Origin: Candidatus Parcubacteria bacterium
Lineage (GTDB): Bacteria > Patescibacteriota > Minisyncoccia > JACPXH01
Length of the DNA: 64,000 nt
Assembly: GCA_016196625.1 (NCBI GenBank)
Contig: JACPXH010000004.1
Location: forward strand, 71,993 to 135,992
Reading direction: 5' to 3'
Part shown: positions 18,464-43,881 of the stretch, piece after piece
Layout: each line of letters opens with the position of its first letter
How positions within the stretch are numbered: position 1 is the stretch's first letter
Program-made: the position numbers and the translations under genes
Notes under the pieces: model-generated
Database searches by the model: none
Told to the model about the DNA's origin: nothing
The model's input: only the letters and a program-made list of their open reading frames with translations

Positions 18464-19216
18464 TCACTTTAAACTTTTAACCTCGCCATACTTCCCCCGC
18501 CAGATATTCAGACGAATCTTGACTGTTTCCCAGAGCACCTCGAGATACGCAGAAAACCCCACATGGGAATTGGCATCGTTCACCCAACGAATCGGCACTT
18601 CCTTAATCCGGTAGCCCAAGAGACGGGCCACGGCGAGCGCTTCCACGTCGAACCCCCATCGGTCAATGGTGAGCCGCGAGAAAATATCTTGAGCCGCTTT
18701 CGCGCTGAATGCCTTGAAGCCCGCCTGCGTGTCCCAAATACCCCACACTGCAAAGACCTGGATGACTTTATTGCCGAGACGTCCAGCCAGTTCTTTATAC
18801 CAAGCTTGATGCACGGCAATGCGGGCGCCACGCACTGCTCTAGAGCCGATGACCACGTCGTACCCTGCGGAAAAATACGGCCAGAATGATTCAACGTGGT
18901 CTAGAGAGGTCGAGTTGTCAGCATCGGTAAAGAGTCGCACGTCCCCCCGGCTAGCAAGCATCCCTTGACGCACCACGTACCCCTTGCCGTGATTTTCAGA
19001 ATTGCTCAGCACTTTGAGGTGCGCCACGGTACCTTCAAAGCGCTGGACTATCTGGACGGTTTCGTCGGTGGAACCGTCGTTGACCACCAAGATTTCATAC
19101 GCGTAAGGCTGCCGACTCAAGTAGTGATCGATGTCTAGCAGAGTCGCGGCGATGCCGCGCGTTTCGTTGTAGGCCGGAATAATTACGGACAGACGCGGCC
19201 GGCTTGAATCAGGCAT
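18464..19216 (-). CDS. GT2-family glycosyltransferase (polyprenyl-phosphate sugar transferase-like)
   Basis: SVIIPAYNE...VNDGSTD...DAD are GT-A motifs. Start at the internal Met, overlapping the ruvX stop by 8 nt. Confidence 0.7.
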   Translation of the reverse strand: MPDSSRPRLSVIIPAYNETRGIAATLLDIDHYLSRQPYAYEILVVNDGSTDETVQIVQRFEGTVAHLKVLSNSENHGKGYVVRQGMLASRGDVRLFTDADNSTSLDHVESFWPYFSAGYDVVIGSRAVRGARIAVHQAWYKELAGRLGNKVIQVFAVWGIWDTQAGFKAFSAKAAQDIFSRLTIDRWGFDVEALAVARLLGYRIKEVPIRWVNDANSHVGFSAYLEVLWETVKIRLNIWRGKYGEVKSLK

Positions 19217-19613
19217 TGGAATTATAACGTGATCGGACGAGATAGCTTTCCAGGATTGTCGCCGCCGCGGCTGCATCCAGCGAGGCCCGCCGGCCGGAGG
19301 TTTGCAGTTTGCGCCTGGCCAACGCCGTAGAAAACCGTTCGTCTTGGGTCCTGATCGGAAGCGACACGACTGCCCGCAGACGTTCAATGAAACAAGCCAC
19401 CGCCACGGCCTGCGCACCTTCTTGCCCGGAAAGCGATCGCGGCCAGCCCACGATGATCTCACTGATCTTTTCGCTCCGGCACAGTTCGGCAAGACGGGCC
19501 ACGAGAGAACCGTCAACGGCCATCACTCCCCGGGGAAAAGCAAACGAGCGGCCTTCGTCCGAAACAGCGAGGCCGAACCGCCGCAGACCAAAATCAATGG
19601 CTAAAATTCGCAT
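19209..19613 (-). CDS. ruvX: Holliday junction resolvase-like YqgF/RuvX
   Basis: MRILAIDFGLRRFGLAVSD is the RuvX N-terminal signature. Confidence 0.8.
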   Translation of the reverse strand: MRILAIDFGLRRFGLAVSDEGRSFAFPRGVMAVDGSLVARLAELCRSEKISEIIVGWPRSLSGQEGAQAVAVACFIERLRAVVSLPIRTQDERFSTALARRKLQTSGRRASLDAAAAATILESYLVRSRYNSNA

Positions 19614-19881
19614 CTCCGCCCCCAGTCTACCAATAAGCTGCCAAAAAAGGAAGCAGCGCTTGAAAGACCGCGGGAACGGAACTGTGAGAAATGCGAGTGT
19701 TGTTTACATCAAGCGGGGTAGGCTCGAGCGGCTTCTGAGGCCGAGCGGGCAGGGTGCCCCGAGCCTGTCGAGGGGCGAGCGAGGCCGAGGAGCAGCGAAA
19801 ATCCTCGCTGGGGATTTTCGCGTAGCGAGAGCCTGCCCCGCTTGATGCCAAAGCATGTAAACAACGCTGTCGAAGCTTACT

Positions 19882-20625
19882 TCAAGCCATAGTTAGAACT
19901 TCCGGGCCGCTTTCGGTAATCGCTACCGTGTGCTCAAAGTGAGCAGCAAGTCCTCCGTCTTTAGTCTTCCACACGCCGCGCGCCCCCTCCACGACCCCCG
20001 CGCCTCCGGTAACCACCATCGGTTCAACGGCGAGCGTCATGCCAACTTCGAGTTGCACGCCACCCCCGGGCTTGCCGGTGTTTGGCACCATCGGCTCCTC
20101 GTGAGGCTCACGACCAACACCATGCCCCACGAGCTCACGCACCACCGCGAAACCATGCTGCCCGACAAACTGTTCAATGGCCCAACCAACATCTCCGGTC
20201 GTCGCCCCAACCTCGAGCGCATGAATGCCCACCTCGAGCGCCTTACGGGTTACCTCAATGAGTCGGCGCGCTTCTGCACTCAACGGCTCGACTCCAACCG
20301 TGACCGAAGTGTCGGTATAAAATTCCCGGTGCCGAATGCCCAAATCCAAACTCACAACGTCCCCGGCTTCGAGCACCCTTTGGGACGGCACGCCGTGCAC
20401 CACTTCGTCGTTGACGGAGACGCATAGCGCCGCCGGAAAATTCCGGTAGCCCTTAAAGGCCGGCGTTACGGCCACGTCGTTAATGAGGTGCTCGGCAAAT
20501 TCATTGAGTGCCGCAGTGCTGCCTCCTGCCCGGACCTCGCGAGCCACCGCCCGAAGCATACGCGCGAGGATTCTGCCACCCTCGCGCATAATTGCTATTT
20601 CCTCTTTGGTCTTCAAGTAAAGCAT
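19882..20625 (-). CDS. map: Methionine aminopeptidase type I
   Basis: Pita-bread fold with metal ligands (D, D, H, E, E). Start MLYLKTKEEIAIMREGG. The 5' 47 bp are duplicated 145 bp upstream. Confidence 0.85.
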   Translation of the reverse strand: MLYLKTKEEIAIMREGGRILARMLRAVAREVRAGGSTAALNEFAEHLINDVAVTPAFKGYRNFPAALCVSVNDEVVHGVPSQRVLEAGDVVSLDLGIRHREFYTDTSVTVGVEPLSAEARRLIEVTRKALEVGIHALEVGATTGDVGWAIEQFVGQHGFAVVRELVGHGVGREPHEEPMVPNTGKPGGGVQLEVGMTLAVEPMVVTGGAGVVEGARGVWKTKDGGLAAHFEHTVAITESGPEVLTMA

Positions 20626-20771
20626 AGAAGCCGGGGCGTTCCGGTTCCTCGATGAACTCGGAACATCGGAGCGCCCGTTCGGCCGAGCGCGCGCAAAGCA
20701 GTTTGCGCGCGCCAACGGCCTCACCCCTCGCGCATAATTGCTATTTCCTCTTTGGTCTTCAAGTGAAACAT

Positions 20772-21434
20772 CTACGTCAGGTGCGTCGCCACTGCCTGCG
20801 CCAGCTCTCCAGCGACCACCTCGATGGGCCGCTCGCCCTTTACGCGCGTGAGCCGCCCCTGTGTTTCGTAGTAGTGAACAAGAGGCATGATGTCTACATC
20901 AAACCAGTCGAGTCGTTTCTCGATTGCCTCGGGGGTATCGTCAGGACGGTTCACGAGTCGGCCGCCGCACACGACACACTGCTGTTCGGCCGCTGCGTCT
21001 GCGACCGGACCTGACAGCGTCGCACAACCCTCGCAGATGCGCCGACCCATGAGCCTCCGTCGCGCCTCCTCGCGGCTAATGTCGAGCAAAAACACGTGCA
21101 CGTTCGTCCGTTCGTACCACGCAAGAATCTCATCAATAAGCTTCGCCTCCTCGAGCCGCCTAGGTGTGCCATCAAAAATCACCCCTTGGTCAGGCGCGAT
21201 TTTATCAATGAGTTCCGCCAGCCAGAGGTGTGCGCCCAACCAATAGGGCGGCAACCCACCAGCATCAATAATGGATCTGACCTTCTGACCAGTCCAAGAA
21301 GAAGTTGCGGCGAGCTCGCGGAAGCGATCGCCTGGGCTAACAGCGGCCAACCCGAAACGTTCGGCCAGGCGCCTGGCCTGCGTACCCTTACCGCAACCTG
21401 AGCGGCCTAAAATTACAACATCGATAACTGCCAT
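20772..21434 (-). CDS. adk: Adenylate kinase with zinc-binding lid
   Basis: P-loop GRSGCGKGTQ and a LID with CEGC...CVVCGG. Confidence 0.9.
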   Translation of the reverse strand: MAVIDVVILGRSGCGKGTQARRLAERFGLAAVSPGDRFRELAATSSWTGQKVRSIIDAGGLPPYWLGAHLWLAELIDKIAPDQGVIFDGTPRRLEEAKLIDEILAWYERTNVHVFLLDISREEARRRLMGRRICEGCATLSGPVADAAAEQQCVVCGGRLVNRPDDTPEAIEKRLDWFDVDIMPLVHYYETQGRLTRVKGERPIEVVAGELAQAVATHLT

Positions 21435-21806
21435 GCTCCCAGCATACCAACTTCACCCATCCTCCTCAACCCCGCCTGATCGACAAAGGACCCCGAAGGT
21501 TACTGTCGAGAAAAGCGCCGCCCCGCACGAGTCTACCGAAGCAGAGACCGTGCTGGGTAAACTCCGGCTGAGCTCCTGAGGCGAGGCGCAGCCCCGAGGC
21601 GACATCCGCAGCTGACGGGCATGGTGGGCGCTGCCGGAGCAGCGACCCCGTCAGCGAGGACAGAGTGAGCGAGTCGCTGGACGAGCGAATGCTCGCAGAG
21701 GGGCTGTGCCTCGCCGATCGTACGACACGTAAGGCAGGAGACGGCCCGCTCGCTGGACAGGCCGACACGTCTTTTCGAGACAGTACCCGAGGGGACACGG
21801 TGACAA

Positions 21807-23084
21807 TCAAAATCCTTCGTACTCGCGCATGACGAGCTGAGCTTTGACTTGTTTGGCGGTCTCGAGCACCACCGAAACCACAATCAGCAAAGCGGTACCA
21901 CCAATGGTGAGCGTCGTGATACGCAAAAATCCCTGGATGATCAACGGTAAAACGGCAATAAGCCCCAAGAAAACTGCGCCCCCCAAGGTGATGCGTGTCA
22001 AAATACGGTAGAGATATTCAGCTGTGGTATTGCCCGGACGGATGCCGGGAATGAAGCCGCCCTGCTTTTGCAGGTTGGAAGAAATTGCTTGCGGGTCGAA
22101 CGTGACCGCGGTGTAAAAATAGGTAAAGAGAACGACCAAAACAAAGTAGAGCCCGCCATAGACCAACTGGTTTTGGGTAAGGCTGGTTAGGAACTGGGCG
22201 AGCGCGGTCAATTGGGGTACTCGACTCAAGAAAGCACCAATCATACTGGGGAAGAGAAGGATGGAGAGCGCAAAGATAATGGGGATGACGCCGGCCTGAT
22301 TGACTCGGAGGGGCAAGTGCGTCGAGATGCCGCCGTACATCCGAGAGCCCCGAATGCGCTTGGCATAGGAAACCGGCACGGCTCGTTCGCCTTCATTGAT
22401 CAGCACCACTCCGGCAATAACGATCACCGCAATGGCCAGGAAGGCAATAACGCTCGGTACTTTCGACGCCTCGAACGTTGCGCTAAAACGCGTGAAATCC
22501 GTCGGGAAACGCGCCACGATGCCGGCGAAGATAATGAGCGAAACACCGTTGCCCAAACCCTTTTCGGTAATGAGTTCCCCCAACCACATGAGCACAATAC
22601 TGCCGGCCGTGATGATAAGCATATCGGCCACGAGCCCAAAGAGCGAAAGGTTGGAGAGCAACCCCTGCCGGGCAAGGAGCGTAAGCAACCCATAGCCCTG
22701 CAGCAAGGCGAGCGGAACTGTGAGCAGGCGCGAATACTGGTTGAAGCGCTGACGACCCGCCTCCCCCTCTTCCTGATACATTTCTTTGAGGCGCGGGAAA
22801 ATCATAGTCAGTAACTGCATAATGATGGAAGCGGTAATGTAGGGTCCCACACCCAACATCATGACCGAAAGATTGGCTAGGGCACTGCCGGAAAACAAAT
22901 TGAGCAACCCCAAGATCTGACCGGTCTCGCCAGAGAATAAATTTTGGAGCTGGGCGGCGTTAACGCCGGGCACTGGCACGGTAGCGCCCAACCTGAAAAT
23001 AGCCAGGAGCGCCAACACAAAGATGGCCTTGCGGCGCAGGTCCCGCGCTTTTACAAATTGCGTCAGCGCTTCCCACATGGACAT
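21807..23084 (-). CDS. secY: Preprotein translocase SecY
   Basis: 10-TM SecY homology along the full length. Confidence 0.95.
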   Translation of the reverse strand: MSMWEALTQFVKARDLRRKAIFVLALLAIFRLGATVPVPGVNAAQLQNLFSGETGQILGLLNLFSGSALANLSVMMLGVGPYITASIIMQLLTMIFPRLKEMYQEEGEAGRQRFNQYSRLLTVPLALLQGYGLLTLLARQGLLSNLSLFGLVADMLIITAGSIVLMWLGELITEKGLGNGVSLIIFAGIVARFPTDFTRFSATFEASKVPSVIAFLAIAVIVIAGVVLINEGERAVPVSYAKRIRGSRMYGGISTHLPLRVNQAGVIPIIFALSILLFPSMIGAFLSRVPQLTALAQFLTSLTQNQLVYGGLYFVLVVLFTYFYTAVTFDPQAISSNLQKQGGFIPGIRPGNTTAEYLYRILTRITLGGAVFLGLIAVLPLIIQGFLRITTLTIGGTALLIVVSVVLETAKQVKAQLVMREYEGF

Positions 23085-23528
23085 TTACACGACCACACTC
23101 CCGCCGGCGGCTTCAATTTTAGACCGGGCGCCCCCCGAGACCGCACACCCGCGCACCCTAAATGCCGCGTGCACCTCGCCCTCGCCCAAGATTTTGATCC
23201 GAGGAATGCGGCCGCGCACGCGTTCGACCGCGCCCGCTTTAAGCAATAGTTGTGGAGTGACCTCGCCACCCGAAGCGAAGAGCCGACCCAGTTCCCCGAT
23301 GTTCACACTGACGGGTTTGGCTTGGATACTCTTGAATTGATGCTTGGAGCGGCCCCGCTGCTTAGGAATTTTTTTGATGACGTCGCGCAGTGCCGGGCGA
23401 ATTTTGGCGCCAGCTCGGGATTTCTGCCCCTTGATACCGCGGCCGGAAAACGCCCCGCGCTTGCCGCCGCGGCCTACGCGCCGGCGGGCTTTCAAAGCAT
23501 GGAAGGGGCGGATAGTGTGGAGCTGCAT
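23085..23528 (-). CDS. rplO: 50S ribosomal protein L15
   Basis: L15 homology. Only 18 nt separate it from rpsE, leaving no room for an L30 gene. Confidence 0.9.
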   Translation of the reverse strand: MQLHTIRPFHALKARRRVGRGGKRGAFSGRGIKGQKSRAGAKIRPALRDVIKKIPKQRGRSKHQFKSIQAKPVSVNIGELGRLFASGGEVTPQLLLKAGAVERVRGRIPRIKILGEGEVHAAFRVRGCAVSGGARSKIEAAGGSVVV

Positions 23529-23546
23529 ACAGGCGGAACACCGAAA

Positions 23547-24014
23547 TTATCGCCGCGCCTTGAGCTGCCCGAGTGCCGCCATGGTGGCCCGGGCGATATT
23601 GAGCTTATTGGTCGAACGCGAGAGGATTTTGGCCGTGATGTTGCCAATGCCGGCGAGCGCGCATATCGCACGCACGGCGCTGCCGGCAATGATACCGCGG
23701 CCTTGCGCAGCTGGCCTCAAGTACACCTTGGCCGAACTGAACTTGGCCTCCACCTCATAATCAATGCTTCCCCGAACTGTCATGGGGACCGAAAGCAGCC
23801 GCTTCTTGGCCTGGTTTTTCGCTTTCTCGATGGCCTTTGAGACATCTGAACCCTTGCCGATGCCAACCCCAACCAGCCCTCGCCGGTTGCCGACGACAAC
23901 GGTGGCCCGGAAGGAAAAACGTCGGCCGCCAGCGACCACGCGGGCAACGCGCCTCACGTCAAGGACGGTATGATCGAACTCTGGTTTTTCTCTGCGAGCG
24001 GTAAAACGCGCCAT
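23547..24014 (-). CDS. rpsE: 30S ribosomal protein S5
   Basis: S5 N- and C-terminal domain homology. Confidence 0.9.
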   Translation of the reverse strand: MARFTARREKPEFDHTVLDVRRVARVVAGGRRFSFRATVVVGNRRGLVGVGIGKGSDVSKAIEKAKNQAKKRLLSVPMTVRGSIDYEVEAKFSSAKVYLRPAAQGRGIIAGSAVRAICALAGIGNITAKILSRSTNKLNIARATMAALGQLKARR

Positions 24015-24030
24015 GACAATGGAAATGGTG

Positions 24031-24390
24031 TCAGAACTTTAGCCCCGCGATCCGAGCTGCTTCAGCTAGCGCTTTAACCCGACCGTGGTAGCGCCTGCCG
24101 GCCCGATCGAACACGACGGCCGTAATCTGTTTTGCTTTTGCAGCCTGTGCAATCAACCTGCCCACGGCTTCAGCTGTTTTACACCGACCGCCAGAAGTTT
24201 TCTTCAGACCTAAGTCAGAAGTAGCGGCCAAGGTGAGACCGTTCGCATCATCAATGAGCTGAGCATAAATGTGCTGGCTCGAACGGAACACCGCGAGACG
24301 CGGACGTTGAGCTGTGCCTGAAACTTTTGACCGGACGCGTTTGCGGCGCCGCAAGAGTCGAACCTGACCGGTAATCGTACGACCCGCCAT
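24031..24390 (-). CDS. rplR: 50S ribosomal protein L18
   Basis: L18 homology. Start at internal MAGRTITGQ. Confidence 0.85.
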
Positions 24391-24397
24391 GGTGTGG

Positions 24398-24949
24398 TTA
24401 CTTAGCCGAGGCCACGGCTTTCTTGCCGGCCTTGCGCCGGACAACTTCGCCTTCATACAGAATTCCCTTGCCCTTGTAAGGCTCAGGCCTTTTCAGCGCC
24501 CGGATGCTCGCCGCCGCCTGCCCGACCATTTCTTTATCAATGCCGGAGACGGTAATGACGTTCTTGGCTACGCCAAAAACAATGCCAGCTGGCGCGCTCA
24601 TCCGGACGGGATGCGAGAAGCCGAGTGCCAACACGAGATCGCTCCCTTGCACTTCTGCCCGGTAGCCGACGCCCTCGATGGTGAGCCGCTTTGCGAACCC
24701 CTCAGACACACCCACTACCATGTTGGCGACAAGCGCCCGCAATAAACCCCACCGGGCACGGTGCTGCCCAGCTGCCTCGGGCGTCTCGGGCGTGACGACC
24801 GCTTCACCCGCCGCAACACGCACCGTGAAAAAAAGCGGCACGAGACGAGTCAAAACTCCTTTGTGCCCCCGCACCGTGAGAGTTTGTCCGGTTATATCCA
24901 TCGTTACGCCCGCTGGAATGGGAATGGGTTTTTGACCGATACGCGACAT
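24398..24949 (-). CDS. rplF: 50S ribosomal protein L6
   Basis: L6 two-domain homology. Confidence 0.9.
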
Positions 24950-24960
24950 GGGTACGATAT

Positions 24961-25356
24961 TCAGAAAATTTCGCAGAGCATCTCTCCGCCGACATTAGAC
25001 TTCCGTGCTTCTTCGGCGGTTTGAATCCCCCGCGGAGTCGAAAGCACAGCGATCCCTCGACGGTGACGGCTCGACCGCAGCGTTCGCGCTCGCGCATATA
25101 CGCGCTGACCGGGTCGGGAGACACGTTTCGCTGATTCTATGCGCGGGGCACCGCTCTCATCGTATTTGAGCTCAACTTCGAGCCGCTTTTTGATTCGTTT
25201 GCCCCGCCGCGTGATCTCACCGACGTAGCCGGCGCTCTGCAGAATTTGAAGGATGGCCAGCTTCACTTTTGAATGTGGGATCACTGCCGTGTCCTTCCGG
25301 GCACGACTTGCGTTTTTGAGTCGCGTGAGCATATCAGCAATGGGATCGGTAAGCAT
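24961..25356 (-). CDS. rpsH: 30S ribosomal protein S8
   Basis: S8 homology. Confidence 0.9.
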   Translation of the reverse strand: MLTDPIADMLTRLKNASRARKDTAVIPHSKVKLAILQILQSAGYVGEITRRGKRIKKRLEVELKYDESGAPRIESAKRVSRPGQRVYARARTLRSSRHRRGIAVLSTPRGIQTAEEARKSNVGGEMLCEIF

Positions 25357-25362
25357 AGAGTT

Positions 25363-25548
25363 TTACCAAGAAGATTTCTTGATGCCCGGCAACTCGCCGC
25401 GGCTCGCCAACTCCCGAAAGCAAATCCGGCAGATGCCGAACTCGCGCAAGTATCCCCTCACCCGGCCACACCGAAAGCACCGTCGCACGACCCGAGTCGA
25501 GTACTTGGGCGGTCTAAGAGACTTGACGATGAGCGATGTTTTTGCCAT
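25363..25548 (-). CDS. rpsZ: 30S ribosomal protein S14 type Z (zinc-binding)
   Basis: 61 aa with CFRCG...CRIC. Start at internal MAKTSLIVK. Confidence 0.85.
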
Positions 25549-25567
25549 ATGGGAGAGCGCAAGAAAA

Positions 25568-26143
25568 CTACTTCTCTTCGGCCCGAATCGGGAAACCGAA
25601 GAGCTGCAAGAGTGCCATGCCCTCCGCGCGACTGCGGGCATTCGTGACCACCGTTGCTTCTAACCCCCAAGTACTGCGCGCCTGTTCGGTTGAAATCTCG
25701 GGGAATACAATATGCTCTCGGATACCGATCGTCAAGTTGCCACGCTCATCAACGGACGATGCGTCAAGCCCACGGAAGTCATGCGTGCGGGGGAGTGCGA
25801 CCGAGATCAACCGATCCATGAAGTCGAACCTGCGCCTACCCCGCAGTGTCACCCGGTAGCCCACCAGCATGCCCTTGCGGCTTTTGAACGAAGCGACTGA
25901 TTTCCTCGCCGTAGTGGGAACGGGCTTCTGTCCAGAGATAGCCGTAAGGCCCGCGACGATATTGTCCGTGAGCGCCTTGTCCTTGGCTATGCGCCCGACG
26001 CCCACATTCAACACTACCTTAAGCACCCTGGGCACGGCCAGATCGTTACGATAACCGAACCGAGCCCGCATGGCCGGGACCACGGTGGCCCGATAGTGCA
26101 GTTGCAGACGGTGCGTTTTCTCTTTGGTGGTCTTTGCGGCCAT
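25568..26143 (-). CDS. rplE: 50S ribosomal protein L5
   Basis: L5 homology. Confidence 0.9.
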
Positions 26144-26146
26144 AAA

Positions 26147-26452
26147 CTAGAAAGCAGCCCCACATTTCAGACACCCTCGGGATTTGTGCGCACCCGCCAT
26201 CACGACCTTGATCCGCGTGGGCTTACTACAGGTTGGGCACACCACCATCGCCTTGGCTGCCGAGAAGGAGGCCGGAAATTCAATCTTCTGCCCCTTCTCG
26301 CCGCCTTTCCGGGGACGGCGATGGCGCACCCGAATGTTGATCCCTTCAACGACCAGACGCCCAGCTCGCGGCAGAACCAGCAGCACCTTACCGCGCCGGC
26401 CGCGGTCTTTGCCGGAAAGCATGACAACGGTATCGCCTTTACGAAGTCGCAT
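26147..26452 (-). CDS. rplX: 50S ribosomal protein L24 (KOW) with C-terminal CxxC...CxxC
   Basis: KOW motif GDTVVMLSGKDRG. C-terminus has CPTC...CLKC. Confidence 0.85.
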   Translation of the reverse strand: MRLRKGDTVVMLSGKDRGRRGKVLLVLPRAGRLVVEGINIRVRHRRPRKGGEKGQKIEFPASFSAAKAMVVCPTCSKPTRIKVVMAGAHKSRGCLKCGAAF

Positions 26453-26456
26453 ACGA

Positions 26457-26822
26457 TTAGATAACCTCTTCGGCTAACGAAATGATTTTGTTAAAGCCGC
26501 GCTCGCGCAACTCTCGCGCAATAGGCCCAAAGATGCGCCCGCCTCTCGGCTCCTTGCCATCTACGACCACCGCGGCATTATCATCGAACCGCACATGGCT
26601 GCCGTCGCGCCGGCGGATGGCGCTGCGACTGCGCACAATCACGGCCCGCACCACGTCGCTCTTCTTGACGAGCTTGCGGGGTTCGGCTTCTTTGACCGCG
26701 CAAACGATAATATCACCCACGGCCGCATAGCGCCGGCGGGTACCGCCGAGCACCTTAATACACTGAAGCTTTTTGGCTCCGGTGTTATCGGCAACGCTCA
26801 ACATGGTTCGCGGCTGAATCAT
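26457..26822 (-). CDS. rplN: 50S ribosomal protein L14
   Basis: L14 homology. Confidence 0.9.
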
Positions 26823-27097
26823 ATCGTCGGCTCCTCATTTGTCTCCGGCGGTGAACTCTGCTCGCCTACCTTCGCTCGCACCGTCCAGTGCTTATCCTTA
26901 GAAACCGGCCGGGATTCAACGATCTCTACCACATCGCCCACCCGGTATTCGTCCGTGTGGCTGTGCACCTTGTAGCGTTTTGAGACAACGTAACGCTTCC
27001 GGTAGCGCGGGTGTGCCCGGAACACGTCAACGGCTACGATGAGCGTTTTCGCCATCTTGGTGGAAACAACTACTCCCCTAAGAACGCGTTTGGGCAT
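26819..27097 (-). CDS. rpsQ: 30S ribosomal protein S17
   Basis: S17 OB-fold homology. Confidence 0.9.
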
Positions 27098-27102
27098 AAG
27101 AT

Positions 27103-27294
27103 TTAGGCGGGCTTTGCTAAACGCAAAACAGTCAAAACCCGAGCGATATCGCGCCGGACCGTCCGGAGTTTGCGGACATTCTTCGACTTTGACGCAAGCT
27201 GTTCAAAGCGCACGGCTTGCAATGCACTCTGCAGCTTGGCGAGCTCTTGCGTCAACGCTTGGCGCGACTGCGTGCGCAGTTCAGAAGCCTTCAT
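27103..27294 (-). CDS. rpmC: 50S ribosomal protein L29
   Basis: L29 homology. Confidence 0.85.
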   Translation of the reverse strand: MKASELRTQSRQALTQELAKLQSALQAVRFEQLASKSKNVRKLRTVRRDIARVLTVLRLAKPA

Positions 27295-27701
27295 GATCGT
27301 GCCACTATTTTCGTTTTCAGCGGCAGCTTGTGCCCGGCCCGACGCAGTGCCTCCCGAGCCGCCACCATAGTCACCCCATCCATTTCAAAAAGGATCCGGC
27401 CGGGGCGAACCGCGGCGACGTAAAATTCGACACTCCCCTTGCCTCCGCCCATCGGAACCTCAACGCCTTTGCGGGTGACGGGTCTATCCGGAAAAATACG
27501 CACCCAGACCTTGCCGCTGCGCTGGGTCGCACGGGCCAGGGTGCGCCGGGCAGCCTCAATCTGACGCGCATTCACCCAGCATTCGTCAACGGCCATAAGA
27601 CCGACACTGCCGAAGGCGAGCTCCGTGCCACGCGCTTCGCGTTTCACGCGGGCCCGGCCCTTGTGCCATTTACGGTGCTTTACCTTCTTGGGAATCAACA
27701 T
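27291..27701 (-). CDS. rplP: 50S ribosomal protein L16
   Basis: L16 homology. Confidence 0.9.
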   Translation of the reverse strand: MLIPKKVKHRKWHKGRARVKREARGTELAFGSVGLMAVDECWVNARQIEAARRTLARATQRSGKVWVRIFPDRPVTRKGVEVPMGGGKGSVEFYVAAVRPGRILFEMDGVTMVAAREALRRAGHKLPLKTKIVARS

Positions 27702-27710
27702 ACGGGTCGG

Positions 27711-28355
27711 CTACTTGTCTTCGAAAACCTCCCCCTTGTAAATCCAGACCTTGACGCCGATGACGCCATACGGCGTAAACGTATGCTTCTGGGCATAATC
27801 AATGTTGGCGCGCAGCGACTGCAGCGGCAACTGCCCCTGCTGGAGCTTCTCTGATCGAGACATCTCGGCTCCTCCCAGCCGACCAGAAAGCATAATCTTG
27901 GCACCCTTGACGTCTCTAGACTGCATGATTTTCATCATCGTCTGCCTCATCACCCGACGGAACGGCAGCCGCTTGAGTAACTCTTGGGCAATCAGCTGGG
28001 CAATAAGGGCGGCCTCCGAGTCGGGTCGGCGCACCTCGCGCACCTCAAGGCGCACCTCCCGATCTTGAACTCCTAAGAGCCGCACGATGTCTTTCTTGAG
28101 CGTTTCAATACCCCCGCCACCGCGTCCCACCAGCACTCCGGGCCGACTCGTGGAGATGATAACCGTGGTGGTCGCGCCCGAACGCTCAATCTCCACCTTG
28201 GCGATGCCTGCTTTCTCGGCCTTTAAGGCCAGGAACCGCCGGAGCGCGACGTCTTGGGCAAGGAATTTTCGGTATGTGCGCGAGGTAAACCAGCGACTGA
28301 TCCAATTGGACGTCTGCCCCAAACGAAATGCGGTTGGATTCACTTTCTGGCCCAT
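27711..28355 (-). CDS. rpsC: 30S ribosomal protein S3
   Basis: KH plus S3-C domains. Start at internal MGQKVNPTAFRLG. Confidence 0.9.
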   Translation of the reverse strand: MGQKVNPTAFRLGQTSNWISRWFTSRTYRKFLAQDVALRRFLALKAEKAGIAKVEIERSGATTTVIISTSRPGVLVGRGGGGIETLKKDIVRLLGVQDREVRLEVREVRRPDSEAALIAQLIAQELLKRLPFRRVMRQTMMKIMQSRDVKGAKIMLSGRLGGAEMSRSEKLQQGQLPLQSLRANIDYAQKHTFTPYGVIGVKVWIYKGEVFEDK

Positions 28356-28362
28356 GTGATCG

Positions 28363-28884
28363 TTACATCGCTTTACGACGAAATACTCTCCGGCCAAACT
28401 CGGTCATGCGCCGCCGCGGAGCTGGCCGCACCTTGGCTGCCTCTCGGAGACCCTTCTTGCCTTCCCGCTCTGACTCCCGGTGTTGCTCCCGGTCTGCCGG
28501 CACCGACGCCACAGCTGCTGTGGTCACAACTGGCCGGCGCTCTTCGGCGGCGGCGCGTTCTGTCAACACGAGCGTGACATGGCTTGTCCGGCGCCCGAGG
28601 GGGTGCGTGAGTCCTCGCGAACGAGGGCGGAAACGCTTGAGCGTCGCTCCCGCGTCCACCGTTATTTCAGACACCATCAGATTGGACTCTTCAAGCCCGA
28701 AGGTATGCTTGGCGTTGGCGACGGCTGATTCGAGTAATTTACGGATCGGTTCTGCCGACCGCCTCAATAGAAACAGCAGCTGTGCTCTTGCGTCAACGAC
28801 CCGCCGCCCCCTGAGCAATTCCGCCACGGCCCGCACCTTCCGTGGGCTCAGGCGCAAATAGTTAAGTTCAGCCCTGACCTTCAT
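28363..28884 (-). CDS. rplV: 50S ribosomal protein L22 with basic C-terminal extension
   Basis: L22 homology. Confidence 0.85.
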   Translation of the reverse strand: MKVRAELNYLRLSPRKVRAVAELLRGRRVVDARAQLLFLLRRSAEPIRKLLESAVANAKHTFGLEESNLMVSEITVDAGATLKRFRPRSRGLTHPLGRRTSHVTLVLTERAAAEERRPVVTTAAVASVPADREQHRESEREGKKGLREAAKVRPAPRRRMTEFGRRVFRRKAM

Positions 28885-28893
28885 AAAGAATGG

Positions 28894-29223
28894 TTACGCC
28901 GCTTTTTTGTCGGGTTCGGGTTTCGGCGAAACAACCTCGGCCTCCTTAGCTTCGATCCCCCGCTGCATCTTGCCACCGTGCCGAACGAACTTTCGGGTAA
29001 GCGCAAACTCGCCCAGCCGGTGGCCCACCATCTCTTCACGCATAAGAACCGGCACGTGCTCCCGGCCATTGTGCACGCCGATGGTGTAACCAATCATCTC
29101 CGGGGTGACGACAGAAGCGCGGGCCCATGTTTTGATAACGGTTTTATCACCCGACCGCAGACGGCGGATCTTGCTCATAAGTTTTTCGTCCACATAGGGA
29201 CCCTTCTTTAGACTGCGCGACAT
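28894..29223 (-). CDS. rpsS: 30S ribosomal protein S19
   Basis: S19 homology ([10 protein letters not shown]-like). Confidence 0.9.
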
Positions 29224-29235
29224 AACGAAAGTTTA

Positions 29236-30060
29236 CTACCGGCTGCGACGAGCCACAATTAAACGACCTGACGGCCGGTGACGCTTGCGAGTTTTCACCC
29301 CGCGGGCGGGTTTCCCCCAGGGAGTCTTGGGCCCCGGAAGTCCGATGGGCGCCCGGCCCTCGCCGCCGCCGTGCGGATGATCAACCGGGTTCATGGCGCT
29401 GCCGCGCACTGTCGGCCTAACCCCCATTAGACGCCTCCGACCTGCTTTACCAATGGCCACAGCGCCGTGCTCCGGATTCGACACGAACCCGAGTGACGCA
29501 TAACCCTGCTCTGGCACCTTACGAACTTCTGTCGACGGCAACTTCAAGTGCACCCAGCCACCCTCGTGCGCCATAACCTGCGCTGCAGCGCCGGCGCTGC
29601 GGATGAGCTGACCGCCTTTACCCGGAAACAACTCCACGTTATGCACGAAGGCGCCCACCGGAATATGTTTAAGCTGTGCCCTGTTGCCGGGCCGAAGCGG
29701 CGTTTGGGGAGCGGTCAAAACAGTATCTCCCACCCGCATGTCCTGAGCTGCCAAAAGGTAGCGCTGCTCGCCGTCAACGTAGACGACGCGAACGATGAAG
29801 GCAGTCCGGTTCGGATCGTACTCAATAGAAACAACTCGGCCGGGGATGCCAATTTTATTCTGCCGGAAGTCCACGCGGCGGTACCGCTGTTTTGCTCCGC
29901 CGCCCTTGTGCCGCACAGTAATGCCAATACCGCGCGCCCGGCCAGAGCGCCTGGCCCGGCCGAAGGTGAGACGCTTCAACGGCCTCGAGCCGGATAGGGC
30001 CGCATAGTCGACTGACGTCATCTGGCGCCTAGCCGGACTGGTTGGACGATACTGTTTCAT
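29236..30060 (-). CDS. rplB: 50S ribosomal protein L2
   Basis: L2 homology. Start at internal MKQYRPTSPARR. Confidence 0.9.
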   Translation of the reverse strand: MKQYRPTSPARRQMTSVDYAALSGSRPLKRLTFGRARRSGRARGIGITVRHKGGGAKQRYRRVDFRQNKIGIPGRVVSIEYDPNRTAFIVRVVYVDGEQRYLLAAQDMRVGDTVLTAPQTPLRPGNRAQLKHIPVGAFVHNVELFPGKGGQLIRSAGAAAQVMAHEGGWVHLKLPSTEVRKVPEQGYASLGFVSNPEHGAVAIGKAGRRRLMGVRPTVRGSAMNPVDHPHGGGEGRAPIGLPGPKTPWGKPARGVKTRKRHRPSGRLIVARRSR

Positions 30061-30431
30061 GCGCGTACCAATTCGAGCTTTTGCCCCTTGGCTATAGTAA
30101 CGATCGCTTTGCGAAACCCCGGCCGCCACCCCTGAACGCGCCCCCGCCGGCGGACCTTGCCGGGCACGTTCACCACTCGAACGGCTCTAACGGTAACGCC
30201 ATACTGCTCCACGACGGCTCTCTTAACCTGACCCTTCGTGGCCTCTGGCCGAATGCGGAAGACATACTCGCCCCTAGCCTCGCCGGCCACCGCCTTTTCG
30301 GTCGCCGGTGCTCCCATCAACACCAAAGCAGCCAAAGCACTGCCGCTTGTGCGCGGCGCTCCGGCTACCGACTCGACCGTTCGTGTCTCGCTGACTGGTT
30401 TTTTTCGTCTCGAGAAAATAGCCATACCCAT
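30057..30431 (-). CDS. rplW: 50S ribosomal protein L23
   Basis: L23 homology with N-terminal extension. Confidence 0.85.
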   Translation of the reverse strand: MGMAIFSRRKKPVSETRTVESVAGAPRTSGSALAALVLMGAPATEKAVAGEARGEYVFRIRPEATKGQVKRAVVEQYGVTVRAVRVVNVPGKVRRRGRVQGWRPGFRKAIVTIAKGQKLELVRA

Positions 30432-31087
30432 TACTTCTTATTTATGGTTTTAGCTTTTGCGCTTTTGGCGCCGTACGTGACGGCCAGAGTTTCGATGCTC
30501 TGACGCGGCACCACAACTGCGGCAAACCGAAGCAAATCCACGACATTAAGTGAACCGACCCCAATGGCTTTGGTCTTGGGCAAGTTCCGAACTGCCCGGA
30601 TCACCTCGTGCGCTCCTGTGGGCACGACCACGAGCCGGCTTGACCCCGCCGGAAGACTCGCAAAAAACCGCCCGTAGGCCTTCGTTTTTGACTCTGCCGG
30701 GAAACCCTCCACGACAAAAAACTTTTCGTCAGCGACCTTGGCCGAAAGCACTTGGCGCAGCGCAGCTTGGCGCATCTTTTTGGGAAGTGCTTTGTAATAC
30801 TTACGCTCTTTGGTCGGGCCAAACGTGATCCCACCGCCTCGCCACAGCGGCGATCTAATGGAGCCGTGTCTGGCTCGACCAGTCCCTTTCTGACGCCAGG
30901 GTTTATGGCCCCCGCCGCGAACCTCGCTGCGATCTTTAGTGTGCGCTATCACGCGCCGGCGGTTGGCCAGTTGAACAGTCAGAGCTTGATGGACCAAATC
31001 GCGGTTCACTTCTAACCCGAAAATATCGGCCGGCAGCTCAACCGTATCGACCTTCTTACCTTCCAAATTATACACCGCGGTCTCCAT
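30431..31087 (-). CDS. rplD: 50S ribosomal protein L4
   Basis: L4 homology. Confidence 0.9.
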   Translation of the reverse strand: METAVYNLEGKKVDTVELPADIFGLEVNRDLVHQALTVQLANRRRVIAHTKDRSEVRGGGHKPWRQKGTGRARHGSIRSPLWRGGGITFGPTKERKYYKALPKKMRQAALRQVLSAKVADEKFFVVEGFPAESKTKAYGRFFASLPAGSSRLVVVPTGAHEVIRAVRNLPKTKAIGVGSLNVVDLLRFAAVVVPRQSIETLAVTYGAKSAKAKTINKK

Positions 31088-31092
31088 GGGCC

Positions 31093-31680
31093 TCAGGCGC
31101 GAATTTCAAGCAGTGTGCCCCGGCTGCCTGGCACCGCTCCTCTCAAGTAAAGCAGATGCTGATTGAGATCAACTTTTATCACTTCAAGATTTTTCACCGT
31201 CACCCGTCCAAAGCCCATCCGCCCGGCCATGCGCATCCCCTTGAGCACTTTCTGGGGCGTGGTTGCGCCGATTGAACCAGGTGCTCGATGCCCGTGCTTC
31301 TGGCCGTGCGTCTTGGGCCCGCCGCCAAAGCCGTGGCGCTTGACCACTCCTTGAAACCCTTTGCCCTTGGAAACCCCGGAAACGCGCACCCGTTCGCCGG
31401 GCGAAAATATCGACACATCGATCTTCGCTCCCCGCTCGGGCCGAATCTCTCCTTCTCCTACTTGAAACTCCCGCAGCCACCGAAACCTGCCGAGGTCCTT
31501 GAAAAAACCTGCTTGGGGTTTGTTGAGACGCTTGGCCTGACCGAAAGCCAGCGCTACTGTCCGTCCGGTAACGGCACTGACCACTGCGGGTTCGGCTTCA
31601 ATAACCGTAACCGGCACGACTTCGCCGTCCACGGCAAAAAGCTGCGTCATCTCTTTTTTTGTGCCGAGAAGCATTTTCAT
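31093..31680 (-). CDS. rplC: 50S ribosomal protein L3
   Basis: L3 homology. Start at internal MKMLLGTKKEMTQLF. Confidence 0.85.
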   Translation of the reverse strand: MKMLLGTKKEMTQLFAVDGEVVPVTVIEAEPAVVSAVTGRTVALAFGQAKRLNKPQAGFFKDLGRFRWLREFQVGEGEIRPERGAKIDVSIFSPGERVRVSGVSKGKGFQGVVKRHGFGGGPKTHGQKHGHRAPGSIGATTPQKVLKGMRMAGRMGFGRVTVKNLEVIKVDLNQHLLYLRGAVPGSRGTLLEIRA

Positions 31681-31683
31681 ACC

Positions 31684-31720
31684 GTTTTGACAACACAAAA
31701 CCGGGCGCGGGCCCGGCACT
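31684..31720 (-). terminator. Terminator-like hairpin plus U-tract immediately upstream of rplC (possible attenuator)
   Basis: Minus strand reads CCGGGC-CCGC-GCCCGG then UUUUGUGUUGUC, ending ~15 nt before the rplC ATG. Confidence 0.35.
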
Positions 31721-31851
31721 AAACAGGCACGAGGTTCAGGTGTCGAATTGATAGTGCAGGGCTCTGCACCGCACCGGGATCTCGCATGAGTCCCGAACTC
31801 TCCCGCGGAGGGGATTAAAGCTCTCCGCACCAGAATTCGAAACTCAAACCA

Positions 31852-32181
31852 TCACGACATCTTAATCTCCACGTCAACTCCGGCCGGCAGCGTCAGGTTG
31901 GTCAAGGCGTCAATGGCTTTCGGTGTCGGATTGATGATATCAATCAAGCGTTTGTGCACCCGCATCTCATACTGCTCGCGCGAGTCCTTGTGCACAAAGG
32001 GCGAACGGTTAACCGTGTACCGATGCATCTCGGTGGGCAAAGGAATTGGCCCCAACACCTCGGCACCTTGACGCTGGGCGGTCTCGACGATCTGCCGGGC
32101 TGATACGTCAATGATCTTGTGGTCGTAGGCCCGAATCTTGATGCGAATGCGCGTCTGGGCTGGAGGAGATTTAGTTACCAT
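31852..32181 (-). CDS. rpsJ: 30S ribosomal protein S10
   Basis: S10 homology. Confidence 0.9.
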
Positions 32182-32237
32182 GAATGAACGTAAACCAGAG
32201 AACTTTAGTCGCGCTCAAGGCGCGGCAGCATGCCGAG

Positions 32238-33431
32238 TTACTTGATCACTTTCGTCACCACGCCTGCACCCACGGTCTTGCCTCCTTCCCGAATCGCAAA
32301 ACGCTGCTTTTCTTCAAGGGCGATGGGGGCGATGAGCTTGACGCTCACGTTCACCGTGTCTCCCGGCATCACCATCTCGGTCCCCTGCGGCAGCGTAACC
32401 TCGCCCGTGACATCGGTCGTCCGGAAGTAAAATTGGGGCTTGTAGCCGGGGAAAAATGGCGTGTGCCGACCACCTTCTTCTTTGGTTAACACGTACACCT
32501 CGGCCTCGAAATCCGTATGCGGCGTCACAGTGCCGGGTTTCGCAATGACTTGGCCACGCTCAACGTCCTCTTTCTTGGTGCCGCGCAAGAGCACGCCGGC
32601 GTTGTCGCCCGCGATGGCTTCATCGAGGGATTTATTGAACATTTCAATGCCGGTTACGACGGTCTTTACGGTCGGCCGAAGCCCCACGATTTCGACTTCT
32701 TCGTTGACCTTGACCGCGCCGCGCTCCACCTTGCCGGTTACAACCGTGCCCCGGCCTTCAATCGAGAAGATGTCTTCGATGGGCATAAGGAAGGGCCTCG
32801 CTGTTTCGCGCTGCGGTTCCGGAATGTACTCATCGAGAGCATTCACCAACTCCATGATCGGTTTTGCCTCGGGACTGTCGGCGCTGGTCGCCTGCAGGGC
32901 CTTGAGCGCCGACCCCCGGATGACCGGGGTCTTATCGCCGTCGTAGTTATACTTCTTGAGGAGCTCACGCACCTCGGCCTCCACGAGATCAATGAGCTCC
33001 GGATCGTCAACTTGATCCACCTTGTTAAGAAAAACCACGATCGACGGCACCCCGACCTGACGAGCCAAAAGAATGTGCTCTCGCGTCTGCGGCATGGGAC
33101 CGTCATAAGCGGAAACCACCAAGATGGCACCGTCCATCTGGGCGGCACCAGTAATCATGTTCTTGATGTAGTCCGCGTGCCCGGGCGCGTCAATGTGGGC
33201 GTAGTGACGTTTGGCGGTTTCGTATTCGACGTGCGCAAGGGCAATGGTGATGCCCCGCGCCTTCTCTTCAGGCGCGGAATCAATTTGATCCACCGATTTA
33301 TCTTGGGCTCGCAAACCAGCACTGCGCAGCACCTTCAAAATAGCGGCGGTCAGTGTGGTCTTGCCGTGGTCAACGTGCCCAATGGTGCCCACGTTGACGT
33401 GCGGTTTGGTTCGTTCAAATTTCTCGGCCAT
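32238..33431 (-). CDS. tuf: Elongation factor Tu
   Basis: GHVDHGKTT...DAPGH...NKVD and full-length homology. Confidence 0.95.
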
Positions 33432-33506
33432 GAAAGAAAATCCTTAAAGGGTTAAGTGGTTTTAAGTGGTCTTTGGCAGACAGCCGTGAGTATTCTAGAA
33501 GAACTC

Positions 33507-33824
33507 TCAACGAGAGTCAAGGGAGCTACGCTCAAACGGCAAATCTTCCAGCTCCAGAGAAACGAGGGGGGCGCTACCTTCTTCTGGCAACTCAACTTTT
33601 GGTTCGCGCTCCCGCTCCCGCCCCTTAAAGACTTCGATGTCGCGGTTGATGCGCTCCCGAAGTTCTTCGTCCGAAAGCTGATCCGAATTCGCCGGGCCTG
33701 GCCTCGCCCCAAAGTATTCCTCAACGGTCGTCAGCACGTACTTCGGCCTCCCGTCTTCAACGATTAGGCACCGCCCGTCCCAACGCTTGAGTAACTCTTT
33801 AAGCGTATTCCAATCCATAAGCAT
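33507..33824 (-). CDS. Small acidic protein with Phd/YefM-antitoxin-like N-terminus, inserted between fusA and tuf
   Basis: CLIVEDGRPKYVLTTVEEYF resembles the Phd/YefM core (xILITRxGkPxaVLmSxEEYe). Sits 6 nt after the fusA stop. Highly charged C-terminal tail. Confidence 0.4.
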   Translation of the reverse strand: MLMDWNTLKELLKRWDGRCLIVEDGRPKYVLTTVEEYFGARPGPANSDQLSDEELRERINRDIEVFKGREREREPKVELPEEGSAPLVSLELEDLPFERSSLDSR

Positions 33825-33830
33825 CCGCCG

Positions 33831-35954: not shown

Positions 35955-35994
35955 TGAGGAAAATAAAAAAGCCCCGCGCAGCGTGTCGCCCGCC

Positions 35995-36462
35995 CTACCA
36001 CCCAAAGTGGGCGAAGGCGCGATTCGCTTCAGCCATGCGGTGGGTATCGTTTTTCTTCTTGACCGCTGCGCCCTCGTTTTTCGCCGCCAGTTCAATTTCT
36101 TGAGCCAGTTTCTCGACCATGGATCGCCCCTTCTGACTCCGGGCAGCACCAATGAGCCACCGCAGCGCCAGCGCCAGCCGCCGTTCGCCCCGCACCTCGC
36201 GCGGCACCTGATAAGTCGCTCCACCAATGCGCTTCGAGCGCACCTCCACGAGGGGTGAAGCGTTCTCTATGGCGGCCTCGAGTGCCGCGCGAGGCTCGCG
36301 TTTGGTGCTCTGGGCGACCCGCTCTAGCGCGCGATAGACGATGGCCCGAGCCACGGCTTTTTTGCCCCCCCACATGAGGGTGTTGATTAACTTGGTAATC
36401 AGCGTGGAGCCGTACTTCGGATCAAGCAGAATTTCTCGTTTGACGCTCTTGGTGCGGCGCAT
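35995..36462 (-). CDS. rpsG: 30S ribosomal protein S7
   Basis: S7 homology. Confidence 0.9.
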
Positions 36463-43112: not shown

Positions 43113-43410
43113 TGGCTTTGCAAGTTGGAGTGTAGAAATTGGCACAGCTCCAGGTGGGTGCCCGCAGTCTTGGCCCACGGGCCAAGAATCATATGAGGCT
43201 CCCCGGAAAAACAATTTGACCCAAAATCATACAATGTGCTGGTGCCCGCCAGAGGCGGGTGGCACGCCTGCAAAGCCACGTATAGTATAGACGACCTGAG
43301 CGTAAAAAGGAAACGCCCGACCAGAACAGTCGGGGCGCACCATAGGCCGGCGAGAAGAATCCTGTCTCCTTTCTCCTGCCGGAGAAGTTTTACGATAAAA
43401 GGAACAAGGG

Positions 43411-43484
43411 TGGGGTCGGGAGGGTTTGAACCTCCATCTTCCGCAGGATCGCTGCGGAGCTCTCACCAATTGAGCTACGTCCCC
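43411..43484 (-). tRNA. tRNA-like gene, formal anticodon GAU (Ile), with non-canonical anticodon loop; possibly a pseudo-tRNA
   Basis: Canonical D-arm (GCUC-AAUUGGUGA-GAGC) and T-arm (GGAGG-UUCAAAC-CCUCC). Acceptor has an A5/A68 mismatch. Anticodon loop is GCGAUCC (C33 and C37 instead of U33 and a purine at 37). No CCA encoded. Confidence 0.45.
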
Positions 43485-43835
43485 ACCGTGAAAAGCGAAG
43501 CGGAGTCCGCCGAAGCATGCCGGCCCTCCTTCGCCGAGGCCCCGGAGGATCCACCTCCGCATGACTGAAAGAACTCGTAACGCATACCGGGCGGAGGCGG
43601 AAACAACCAAGCCTTCCCGTTCGGGAAGGCTTGTCCTGTAACGCTATCTGTAAACTTGCTTCAGGCGTCTGCCTTCCCTGCAGATTTCAGAATGACCGCA
43701 AGCGTAATAACCAAGGCTTGGAACGCCTGGCGATGCGCCATCAATTCTGAAATCAAGAAGGCCATAAATCAGCTTACTCCAAAGATATCTCTTCAGTTCA
43801 GGCCACGTCAAGGCGGTTATCAACACTGTAAAAAT

Positions 43836-43868: not shown

Positions 43869-43881
43869 CTGGCCTACGCGA

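Follow-up and report, generated by a model that had tools for sequence, protein, structure and literature searches.

A duplicated map gene start and a hairpin-rich spacer at the adk–map junction of uncultivated Parcubacteria

Introduction

Why would a bacterial genome carry the first codons of its methionine aminopeptidase gene (map) twice, once against the stop codon of the adenylate kinase gene (adk) and once at the head of map itself, with a GC-rich, hairpin-forming spacer between the two copies? The question is raised by a 64-kb stretch of a Candidatus Parcubacteria genome (contig JACPXH010000004.1 of assembly GCA_016196625.1), hereafter the window, in whose forward-strand positions all coordinates are given. 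An initial annotation of the window had drawn attention to this junction as the apparent footprint of an insertion or excision event, or as a small structured mobile or regulatory element. We found no literature on this adk–map locus.

The rearrangement is neither recent nor an artefact, and it does not belong to any of the known RNA or mobile-element families tested. We hold, with moderate confidence, that it is the relic of an old, clade-wide duplication or insertion that has since been homogenised and eroded, and that it is specific to a lineage of uncultivated Parcubacteria. On present evidence, the locus is a modestly interesting evolutionary footprint. In uncultivated bacteria with reduced genomes, it offers a small, clean case of a defunct gene start that has stayed almost the same as the functional one through a long divergence; the palindromes of the adjoining spacer have grown, eroded and, in one case, apparently moved from one lineage to another.

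Results

The duplicated start of map

On the minus strand, the gene order is secY (23084-21807), adk (21434-20772) and map (20625-19882). The junction is made up of the following features.

20772..21434, minus strand: adk (adenylate kinase, 220 amino acids (aa)), an open reading frame (ORF) with stop TAG at 20774-20772; Pfam ADK match on the identical protein
20722..20771, minus strand: distal copy of map nt 1-47/50, from repeat finding and translation; at the same place in L018/19, L020, L024 and L025 (relatives described below)
20626..20721, minus strand: GC-rich spacer between the copies, 96 nt when the copies are taken as 20722-20771 and 20576-20625
20626..20640, minus strand: conserved block AACGCCCCGGCTTCT adjoining the functional map ATG on its 5' side; the window, L022, L024 and L025 have it in identical or almost identical form
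20576..20625, minus strand: proximal copy, the real 5' end of map, with its ATG at 20625-20623, the start position of the 247-aa homologues
20559..20590, minus strand: hairpin in map codons 12-23 (UAUGCGCGAGG, 10-nt loop, CCUCGCGCGUA), its sequence kept in all relatives
19882..20625, minus strand: map (type I methionine aminopeptidase, 247 aa), an ORF; Pfam Peptidase_M24 match on homologues

The duplication reported in the initial annotation was recovered by a repeat finder as a direct repeat (20579-20625 and 20725-20771) of 47 nt without gaps, identical at 45 of 47 positions. Its exact core is 40 nt long and the copies are spaced 146 nt apart; with one indel the repeat extends to the 50-nt limits 20576-20625 and 20722-20771. 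Its two differences are T/C and C/T. Shuffled sequences gave no chance match (0), and the repeat is the sole sizeable direct repeat within the window. Its right-hand end coincides with the boundary between the 5' arm and the loop of the hairpin in map codons 12-23.

The coding strand of adk ends with ...ACG TAG and continues with ATGTTTCACTTGAAGACCAAAGAGGAAATAGCAATTATGCGCGAGGGGTGA, translated as MFHLKTKEEIAIMREG-stop. The ATG of the distal copy (20771-20769) immediately follows the adk stop (TAGATG) and opens an ORF, MFHLKTKEEIAIMREG, of 16 codons that closes with TGA at 20723-20721, so that a truncated map N-terminus does stand at the adk stop, as had been annotated. After the 96-nt spacer, the sequence resumes with ATGCTTTACTTGAAGACCAAAGAGGAAATAGCAATTATGCGCGAGGGTGGC..., translating to MLYLKTKEEIAIMREGGRIL... 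This proximal copy aligns with residue 1 of the 247-aa homologues and is the real start of map, again in agreement with the annotation. The map product is 91% identical to the homologue P0121, and adk homologues in the syntenic relatives show 70-90% identity.

Authenticity of the assembly

Duplication by the assembler was an obvious concern. The exact adk protein was found on one other contig, L001, a 951-bp Logan assembly of run SRR12113416, which is an exact substring of the window (20735-21685). The last 31-mer of L001 is the final one unique to the distal copy; the next would be the first of ten common to both copies. Logan unitigs are built with k = 31. If this value applies, reads that contain the two copies, and with them the spacer, would be expected to give a break at the shared 31-mers. 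Moreover, adk and map are contiguous with the same layout in L018/L019, L020 and L024, which come from independent projects, and the copies of L020 and L024 have diverged so far that no 31-mer is common to both. The break in L001 and the independent assemblies of relatives exclude duplication by the assembler, the main concern of the annotation.

Distribution of the duplication among relatives

The closest genomes are metagenome-assembled genomes (MAGs) of uncultivated 'Candidatus Parcubacteria' and Logan/ENA contigs. In all close relatives the order S5-L15-secY-adk-map-ruvX-glycosyltransferase is syntenic. Our sample comprises nine lineages including the window; the junction is spanned in six relatives (L018/L019, L020, L021, L022/L023 and L024), whereas L026 and L027 end before map and L025 ends at the map start. 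L018/L019 are two NCBI MAGs, and L020, L024 and L025 are Logan assemblies of other runs. The junctions of the relatives, with the identity of their adk to that of the window, are as follows.

L018/L019 (adk 90%): TAG, a 43-nt distal copy with ATG changed to ATC, only GCTTCT (6 nt) as spacer, then the real start; the copies match at 41/43 positions
L020 (adk 90%): TAG-ATG with distal copy, an 84-nt spacer holding two hairpins, one of 16 bp with an unrelated sequence, followed by the real start; 8/43 positions differ between the copies
L024 (adk 77%): TAG-CG-ATG with distal copy, a 93-nt spacer, then the real start
L022/L023 (adk 77%): TAG-ATGCTT, a possible remnant of 6-7 nt, followed by the 3' half of an L024-like spacer
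L021 (adk 76%): a 29-nt spacer, no distal copy
L025 (adk 74%): distal copy beginning with GTG, 12 nt past TAA; spacer with a 54-nt L020-like block
L026 and L027 (adk 72% and 70%): adk stop, GGGTGA, a CUGC-loop hairpin (intact in L026, broken in L027), no distal copy

Comparison of the adk–map junction with related genomes, which the annotation had also recommended, thus places the distal copy in five lineages: the window, L018/L019, L020, L024 and L025. No upstream copy exceeded the shuffle null in 16 more distant genomes, and a scan of JGI metagenomes with adk returned no relative above 43% identity.

In an adk neighbour-joining tree, the window, L020, L018/19 and L022 form group A, and L021, L026, L027, L025 and L024 form group B. 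The distal copy is present in both groups, whose adk proteins are 70-77% identical and whose third codon positions are 33-52% identical, which is near saturation. The general idea that the start of map was hit by an insertion or a duplication stands, with the qualification that the event is old, being shared by both sub-groups.

By MAFFT and BLAST comparison, the spacers, those of members without the duplicate included, are all mosaics derived from a single homologous sequence. The pre-ATG block CGCCCCGGCTTCT is common to the window, L022, L024 and L025, and the last 6 nt of AACGCCCCGGCTTCT are kept in L019; GCCGCG-N-AGCGGCG is common to L024, L020 and L025; the CUGC-loop hairpin is common to the window, L024 and L026 and decayed in L027; and the 3' part of the spacer is retained in L021 and L027. 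What had been described as a 95-bp insert is not a foreign unit private to this genome but a fast-eroding intergenic spacer (96 nt) with homologues in every member of the clade. Homology throughout the clade makes the spacer older than the clade split. Judging from these alignments, the duplicate may be as old as the spacer, with three losses, or may have been added onto a pre-existing spacer and then have spread.

Decay and homogenisation of the distal copy

The functional copies are under evident coding constraint: the proximal peptide KT-x-E/D-E-I-A-x-M-R-E-G-G is conserved while third positions vary, which indicates that map codons 1-12 are translated. The distal ORF, by contrast, has 16, 31, 46 or 26 codons, or no start, and its stops and frames relative to map differ between lineages. 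Distal copies also carry non-synonymous changes at residues conserved in the functional copies, E to A in L024 and I to R in L025. We interpret the distal copy as a non-functional pseudo-start, or decoy.

The two copies in the window and in L019 are more alike than such decay would suggest. They differ at 2/43 positions in the window and at 2/43 in L019, compared with 4-5/43 between orthologous copies of these two genomes. Two sites have changed in concert, reading T...A in both copies of the window and G...C in both copies of L019. Third-position identity between the window and L019 is 70-73%, whereas the two copies within each are 95-96% identical; under neutral drift, about six private changes per lineage would be expected since the split of the window and L019 alone. 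The distal copies of L024 and L025 still read ACACCA, as does the only, functional copy in L021, while the proximal copies read ACCAA(A/C).

The simplest account of these patterns is an old duplicate intermittently overwritten from the functional copy by gene conversion, which would be recent in the lineages of the window and L019 and older in those of L020 and L024. We attribute the high similarity of the copies to later homogenisation and not to youth.

Hairpins of the spacer

The strong hairpins lie between the copies, as had been annotated, and the perfect 11-bp-stem hairpin at 20687-20712 was recovered. The spacer RNA of the window is predicted to fold with -57.3 kcal/mol (z = -3.8; 0/200 shuffles as good) into two elements.

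20681..20720, minus strand: hairpin H1, with outer stem GGCCG/CGGCC, an inner 12-bp stem and a CUGC loop; perfect 11-bp core at 20687-20712; a composite 17-bp hairpin in RNA
20634..20676, minus strand: hairpin H2, with base GGGCG.../...CGCCC, from the predicted fold

In the window, L024 and L020, folding into two hairpins is highly significant (z = -3.8, -3.4 and -6.2, respectively); this fold is lost in L025, L022, L027 and L021. L024 and L026 have, at the H1 position, a hairpin with the same CUGC loop and GAAC flank and another stem sequence; between these two the stems show one compensatory double change, G-C to A-U. Set against that of the window, the first hairpin of L024 differs in its stem and agrees in its CUGC loop and GAACGGGCGCT flank; at the position homologous to H2, L024 forms a 9-bp base, GGGCGCUGC/GCAGCGCCC. 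The H1 of the window resembles the L024/L026 hairpin with a GC-rich palindromic extension. L020 carries a 13-nt arm that is missing from the otherwise identical block of L025, whose spacer is without the 5' arm of the first hairpin.

Searches for a known function or family gave no result. H1 is not followed by a T-run, and a terminator scan was blank across 20626-20721; a combined promoter and terminator scan of 19800-21600 found no site inside the spacer. No relevant Rfam match was obtained for the window region, L020, L024 and L025 at a permissive E-value or for the whole window at the gathering threshold, the only matches being sub-threshold chance similarities to microRNAs and small nucleolar RNAs. 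No second copy of the hairpin (up to three mismatches) or of four insert variants was detected in the window or in 41 fetched loci, except at adk–map junctions. No inverted-repeat pair joins both ends of the spacer; the inverted repeats are its internal hairpins.

The pre-ATG block at 20626-20640 is complementary to 20356-20370 (map codons ~86-90, EAGDV), perfectly over 10 nt in the window; the L025 version of the block shows 15-nt complementarity against the window, L020 and L019, which is not kept in L022 and L024. Long-range pairing between the block and map was rejected as a conserved feature, as L022 and L024 keep the block and not the complementary site. The complementarity is probably due to chance or a trace of the origin of the spacer.

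H1 and H2 are probably ordinary intercistronic RNA hairpins, like other post-stop hairpins in the window. Further strong hairpins of 12-16 bp, unrelated to H1 in sequence, lie between or just after genes at 52561-52585, 43836-43869 and 43608-43633. The one at 43836-43869 is followed by TTTTC, and two of these strong hairpins flank tRNA-Ile (43408-43485).

Discussion

A possible history of the junction

The ancestral map probably started directly on the adk stop (TAG-ATG). A recognisable Shine-Dalgarno sequence is missing from most genes of the ribosomal-protein operon (19209-36227), and a direct stop-to-start join, TAAATG at ~23085, links L15 to secY. In a genome largely without Shine-Dalgarno sequences that contains such a join, an ancestral TAG-ATG coupling of map to adk is plausible and the start of map needs no Shine-Dalgarno sequence of its own. 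A single event would then have duplicated map from nt 1 to ~50, leaving a GC-rich spacer between the copies. The position of the breakpoint at the loop of a conserved coding hairpin and the palindromic filler lead us to infer a replication template switch or a microhomology-mediated event.

The upstream copy would have become a dead pseudo-start joined to adk, and the downstream copy the working start. The sequence of the distal copy has since diverged by drift in L020, L024 and L025; in L019 its ATG is lost, in L022 it has apparently been mostly deleted, and L021, L026 and L027 are without it. The palindromes of the spacer have been extended and perfected, with deletions besides. In the window, a ribosome that finishes adk could restart at the decoy ATG, translate its 16 codons and stop three bases short of H1. 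Termination on the decoy would uncouple the translation of map from that of adk, and map would be initiated independently at an AU-rich start without a Shine-Dalgarno sequence, as is normal for this genome. Since half of the lineages have lost one or both components, we regard the uncoupling as a consequence and not as a selected purpose. The map gene is intact wherever its sequence is available (L019, L021, L022), despite lost or eroded hairpins; the spacer thus appears dispensable and fast-evolving, and nothing in the compared sequences indicates that the arrangement is indispensable.

Several observations weigh against this account. Direct repeats of 40-47 nt lying 6-100 nt apart are expected to be prone to deletion by slippage, yet they survive in five lineages; their survival may mean that the product of precise deletion is selected against, which would imply some function. 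The two-hairpin layout kept with different stems in three lineages could reflect selection on RNA structure. The insert block of L020 and L025 is identical at 52/54 positions, against 70% identity of their adk DNA and 10 differences in 43 positions between their distal copies, a discrepancy that vertical descent with neutral decay fails to explain: either ~55 nt have moved laterally between co-occurring lineages, or the block is very strongly constrained in those two. The sample is limited to nine lineages; since L021, L026 and L027 have the spacer without the duplicate, the spacer may have come first and the duplicate later, or both may have arisen together. Finally, the mechanism of origin is read from a pattern in the sequence alone, the position of the breakpoint.

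Alternative explanations

The persistence of intrinsically unstable direct repeats in five lineages is also the starting point for an explanation that we consider unlikely, a selected cis-regulatory leader in which the decoy start coupled to the adk stop and the two hairpins set the output of map. Such a leader could drain ribosomes arriving from adk, end or process the adk transcript at H1, or stabilise both halves of the mRNA. The decoy ATG adjoins the adk stop in the window and L020, as well as in the possible remnant of L022, and lies 2 nt after the stop in L024, where the decoy ORF moreover ends with ATGA, overlapping the start of map. Two strong hairpins of different sequence occupy the same positions in the window, L024 and L020, and one compensatory double change separates the H1 of L024 from that of L026. 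However, the length, stop position, frame and start codon of the decoy ORF vary, and the hairpins are destroyed or deleted in L019, L021, L022, L025 and L027, with the essential map gene intact in L019, L021 and L022. H1 has no U-tract and hence is no canonical intrinsic terminator, and the region matches no Rfam family. Template switching at the DNA level can itself preserve the symmetry of a palindrome, which makes the compensatory change weak evidence of RNA function. Should selection prove to lie behind the persistence of the arrangement, the locus would show how adjacent genes are uncoupled in genomes that lack Shine-Dalgarno sequences.

A direct repeat made up of a gene end, the inner copy of which restores the gene, is the hallmark of attL/attR sites, and here the repeat begins exactly at the start codon. 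The junction could on these grounds derive from a site-specific mobile or integrative element, as its remnant or in miniature form, with the 47-nt block at the start of map as an att-like stretch that integration had duplicated and the spacer as a leftover or a non-autonomous cassette moved in trans; we regard this as possible but doubtful. The near-identity (96%) of the L020 and L025 block, given the divergence of the flanking adk and distal copies, suggests a recent lateral move of ~55 nt, and in their first codons the proximal copy of the window resembles the distal copy of L020 and vice versa (MLYLKT / MFHLKT-MFNLKT). No integrase or longer element was found between the copies in the six relatives that span the junction, L025, L026 and L027 ending before the start of map; and the insert has no second copy in the window or the fetched loci and no match in a viral contig, phage or plasmid. 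These negative results, together with those for Rfam, likewise offer no evidence for a dispersed mobile family, a possibility raised in the initial annotation. The homology of the spacer across the clade, including members without the duplicate, is as vertical descent predicts, and a duplication of 47 nt far exceeds the target-site duplications of insertion sequences (IS) and miniature inverted-repeat transposable elements (MITEs). If mobile, the insert would be a first hint of a miniature site-specific element in this group.

A more specific form of this proposal, in which the 47-nt block is the recombination site of a tiny non-autonomous cassette system swapping structured inserts between co-occurring lineages of Parcubacteria, seems to us improbable. 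It would account at once for the 96% identity of the insert block between genomes with 70% identical flanking genes, for the repeats evolving in concert and for first-codon variants having changed places between the distal and proximal copies.

Misassembly, whether a plain artefact or a chimera joining the map starts of two strain variants, is very improbable. The 40-nt exact core exceeds common k-mers, so that mis-joins are possible, and L001 does break at the repeat; however, the graph topology that it implies requires, for at least one genome, a path that enters the spacer from one copy and exits through the other, and the same layout is contiguous in L019, L020 and L024, two of which (L020 and L024) have copies that share no 31-mers. 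Programmed bypassing of the T4 gene 60 type, with take-off at Gly16 (GGG) before UGA and H1 and landing on the proximal Gly codon, can practically be dismissed: the Gly codon, immediate stop, strong hairpin and identical downstream context are all present in the window only, whereas L020, L024 and L025 lack a stop after the Gly codon, L019 lacks a decoy start, the gap would span ~146 nt, and the proximal copy has its own ATG where all homologues start.

Comparison with known systems

Elements that integrate into the end of a gene leave attL/attR duplications, and their decayed derivatives are known as cis-mobilizable elements (CIME). As in these, direct repeats of a gene terminus flank other DNA at the adk–map junction, and the copy joined to the gene body is functional while the other is a dead fragment. 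Unlike them, the junction has no recombinase: in the window and the six relatives spanning it, the distance from adk to map is at most 146 nt and holds no extra gene, and the intervening DNA of 6-96 nt is homologous throughout the clade. No element carrying the identity block was found among IMG/VR contigs, INPHARED phages and PLSDB plasmids (0 matches), collections in which phages of these bacteria are poorly sampled.

Control regions with an upstream ORF or a leader peptide, and translational coupling, are known regulatory layouts. The junction resembles them in that the start of a short ORF adjoins the preceding stop and stable hairpins precede the gene that would be regulated. It differs in that the short ORF copies the start of that very gene and is not conserved as an ORF, and in the lack of a terminator/antiterminator pair or U-tract.

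Template-switch (quasipalindrome) mutations and microhomology-mediated tandem duplications (PMC8604942, PMC7954356) offer parallels to the history proposed here: hairpin arms that are homogenised and extended, as in the 13-nt arm of L020 and H1 of the window, a breakpoint at a hairpin loop and the homogenisation of nearby repeats. Such events do not alone explain a 96% identical block in two distant genomes. The extragenic palindromes of the REP/REPIN type (PMC3733652) share with H1 and H2 the character of short GC-rich perfect hairpins right after stop codons, possibly acting on mRNA ends. REPs are high-copy families, whereas here a single locus is present in 64 kb; no RAYT-type gene was seen, and none was sought.

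Other candidates do not fit. An IS or MITE insertion is contradicted by a duplication of 47-50 nt, as against the ~2-14 bp expected, and by the lack of terminal inverted repeats; a leader-peptide attenuator by the unconserved ORF, the missing terminator and the loss of the hairpins in several lineages; and an intrinsic terminator by a hairpin that has no U-tract. For cis-regulatory RNAs of Rfam (ribosomal-protein leaders, riboswitches), no covariance model matched above threshold. In a diversity-generating retroelement the differences would fall on template adenines, whereas those observed are T/C and C/T; the repeat lies at the 5' end of a housekeeping gene, and no search for a reverse transcriptase was made.

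Gene calls and neighbouring sequences

The locus misleads gene callers, which choose the Met13 start or a 280-aa start, as well as assemblers, whose unitigs break in the repeat. A 280-aa map product with an N-terminal extension (GTG at 20724, reading through the spacer in the frame of map) was rejected, as L020 has an in-frame stop 33 nt upstream of the ATG and the homologues have 247 aa. An internal start at Met13 (235 aa), found in the gene calls L020:1969, L024:3339 and L028:16, was also rejected, the peptide of codons 1-12 being conserved while third positions vary. Met13 is preceded by an SD-like GAGGAAAT inside the coding sequence. Both the 235-aa and the 280-aa calls are likely mis-annotations caused by the locus.

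Upstream of the adk ATG (21434), at 21441-21469 on the minus strand, lies a promoter-like motif, TTGAGG, 17 nt and TATGCT, ending 6 nt before the ATG. A simple sigma-70 scan did not flag this motif; it is conserved in the relatives aligned there, with TATCCT in L022, L024 and L025. To judge from the motif, adk and map would form a nearly leaderless transcription unit of their own, apart from secY.

The secY–adk spacer (21435-21806) is 372 nt long in the window, compared with 70 in L019, 107 in L020, 181-239 in L021, L022, L024 and L025, and 893 in L026. It contains ~300 extra GC-rich bases with a predicted fold of -159.7 kcal/mol (z = -4.7 against shuffles) and has no Rfam match. The other end of L001 also falls inside this spacer, at 21685. 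Between secY and adk, L026 alone among the relatives has a 176-aa ORF (L026:1713-2243), which has no Pfam match.

Elsewhere in the window, an AT-rich 17-nt palindrome at 47834-47861 (CATTCTAATATACTAGT / ACTAGTATACTAGAATG) stands between two minus-strand genes in a genome with otherwise 58% GC, and could be an operator-like site.

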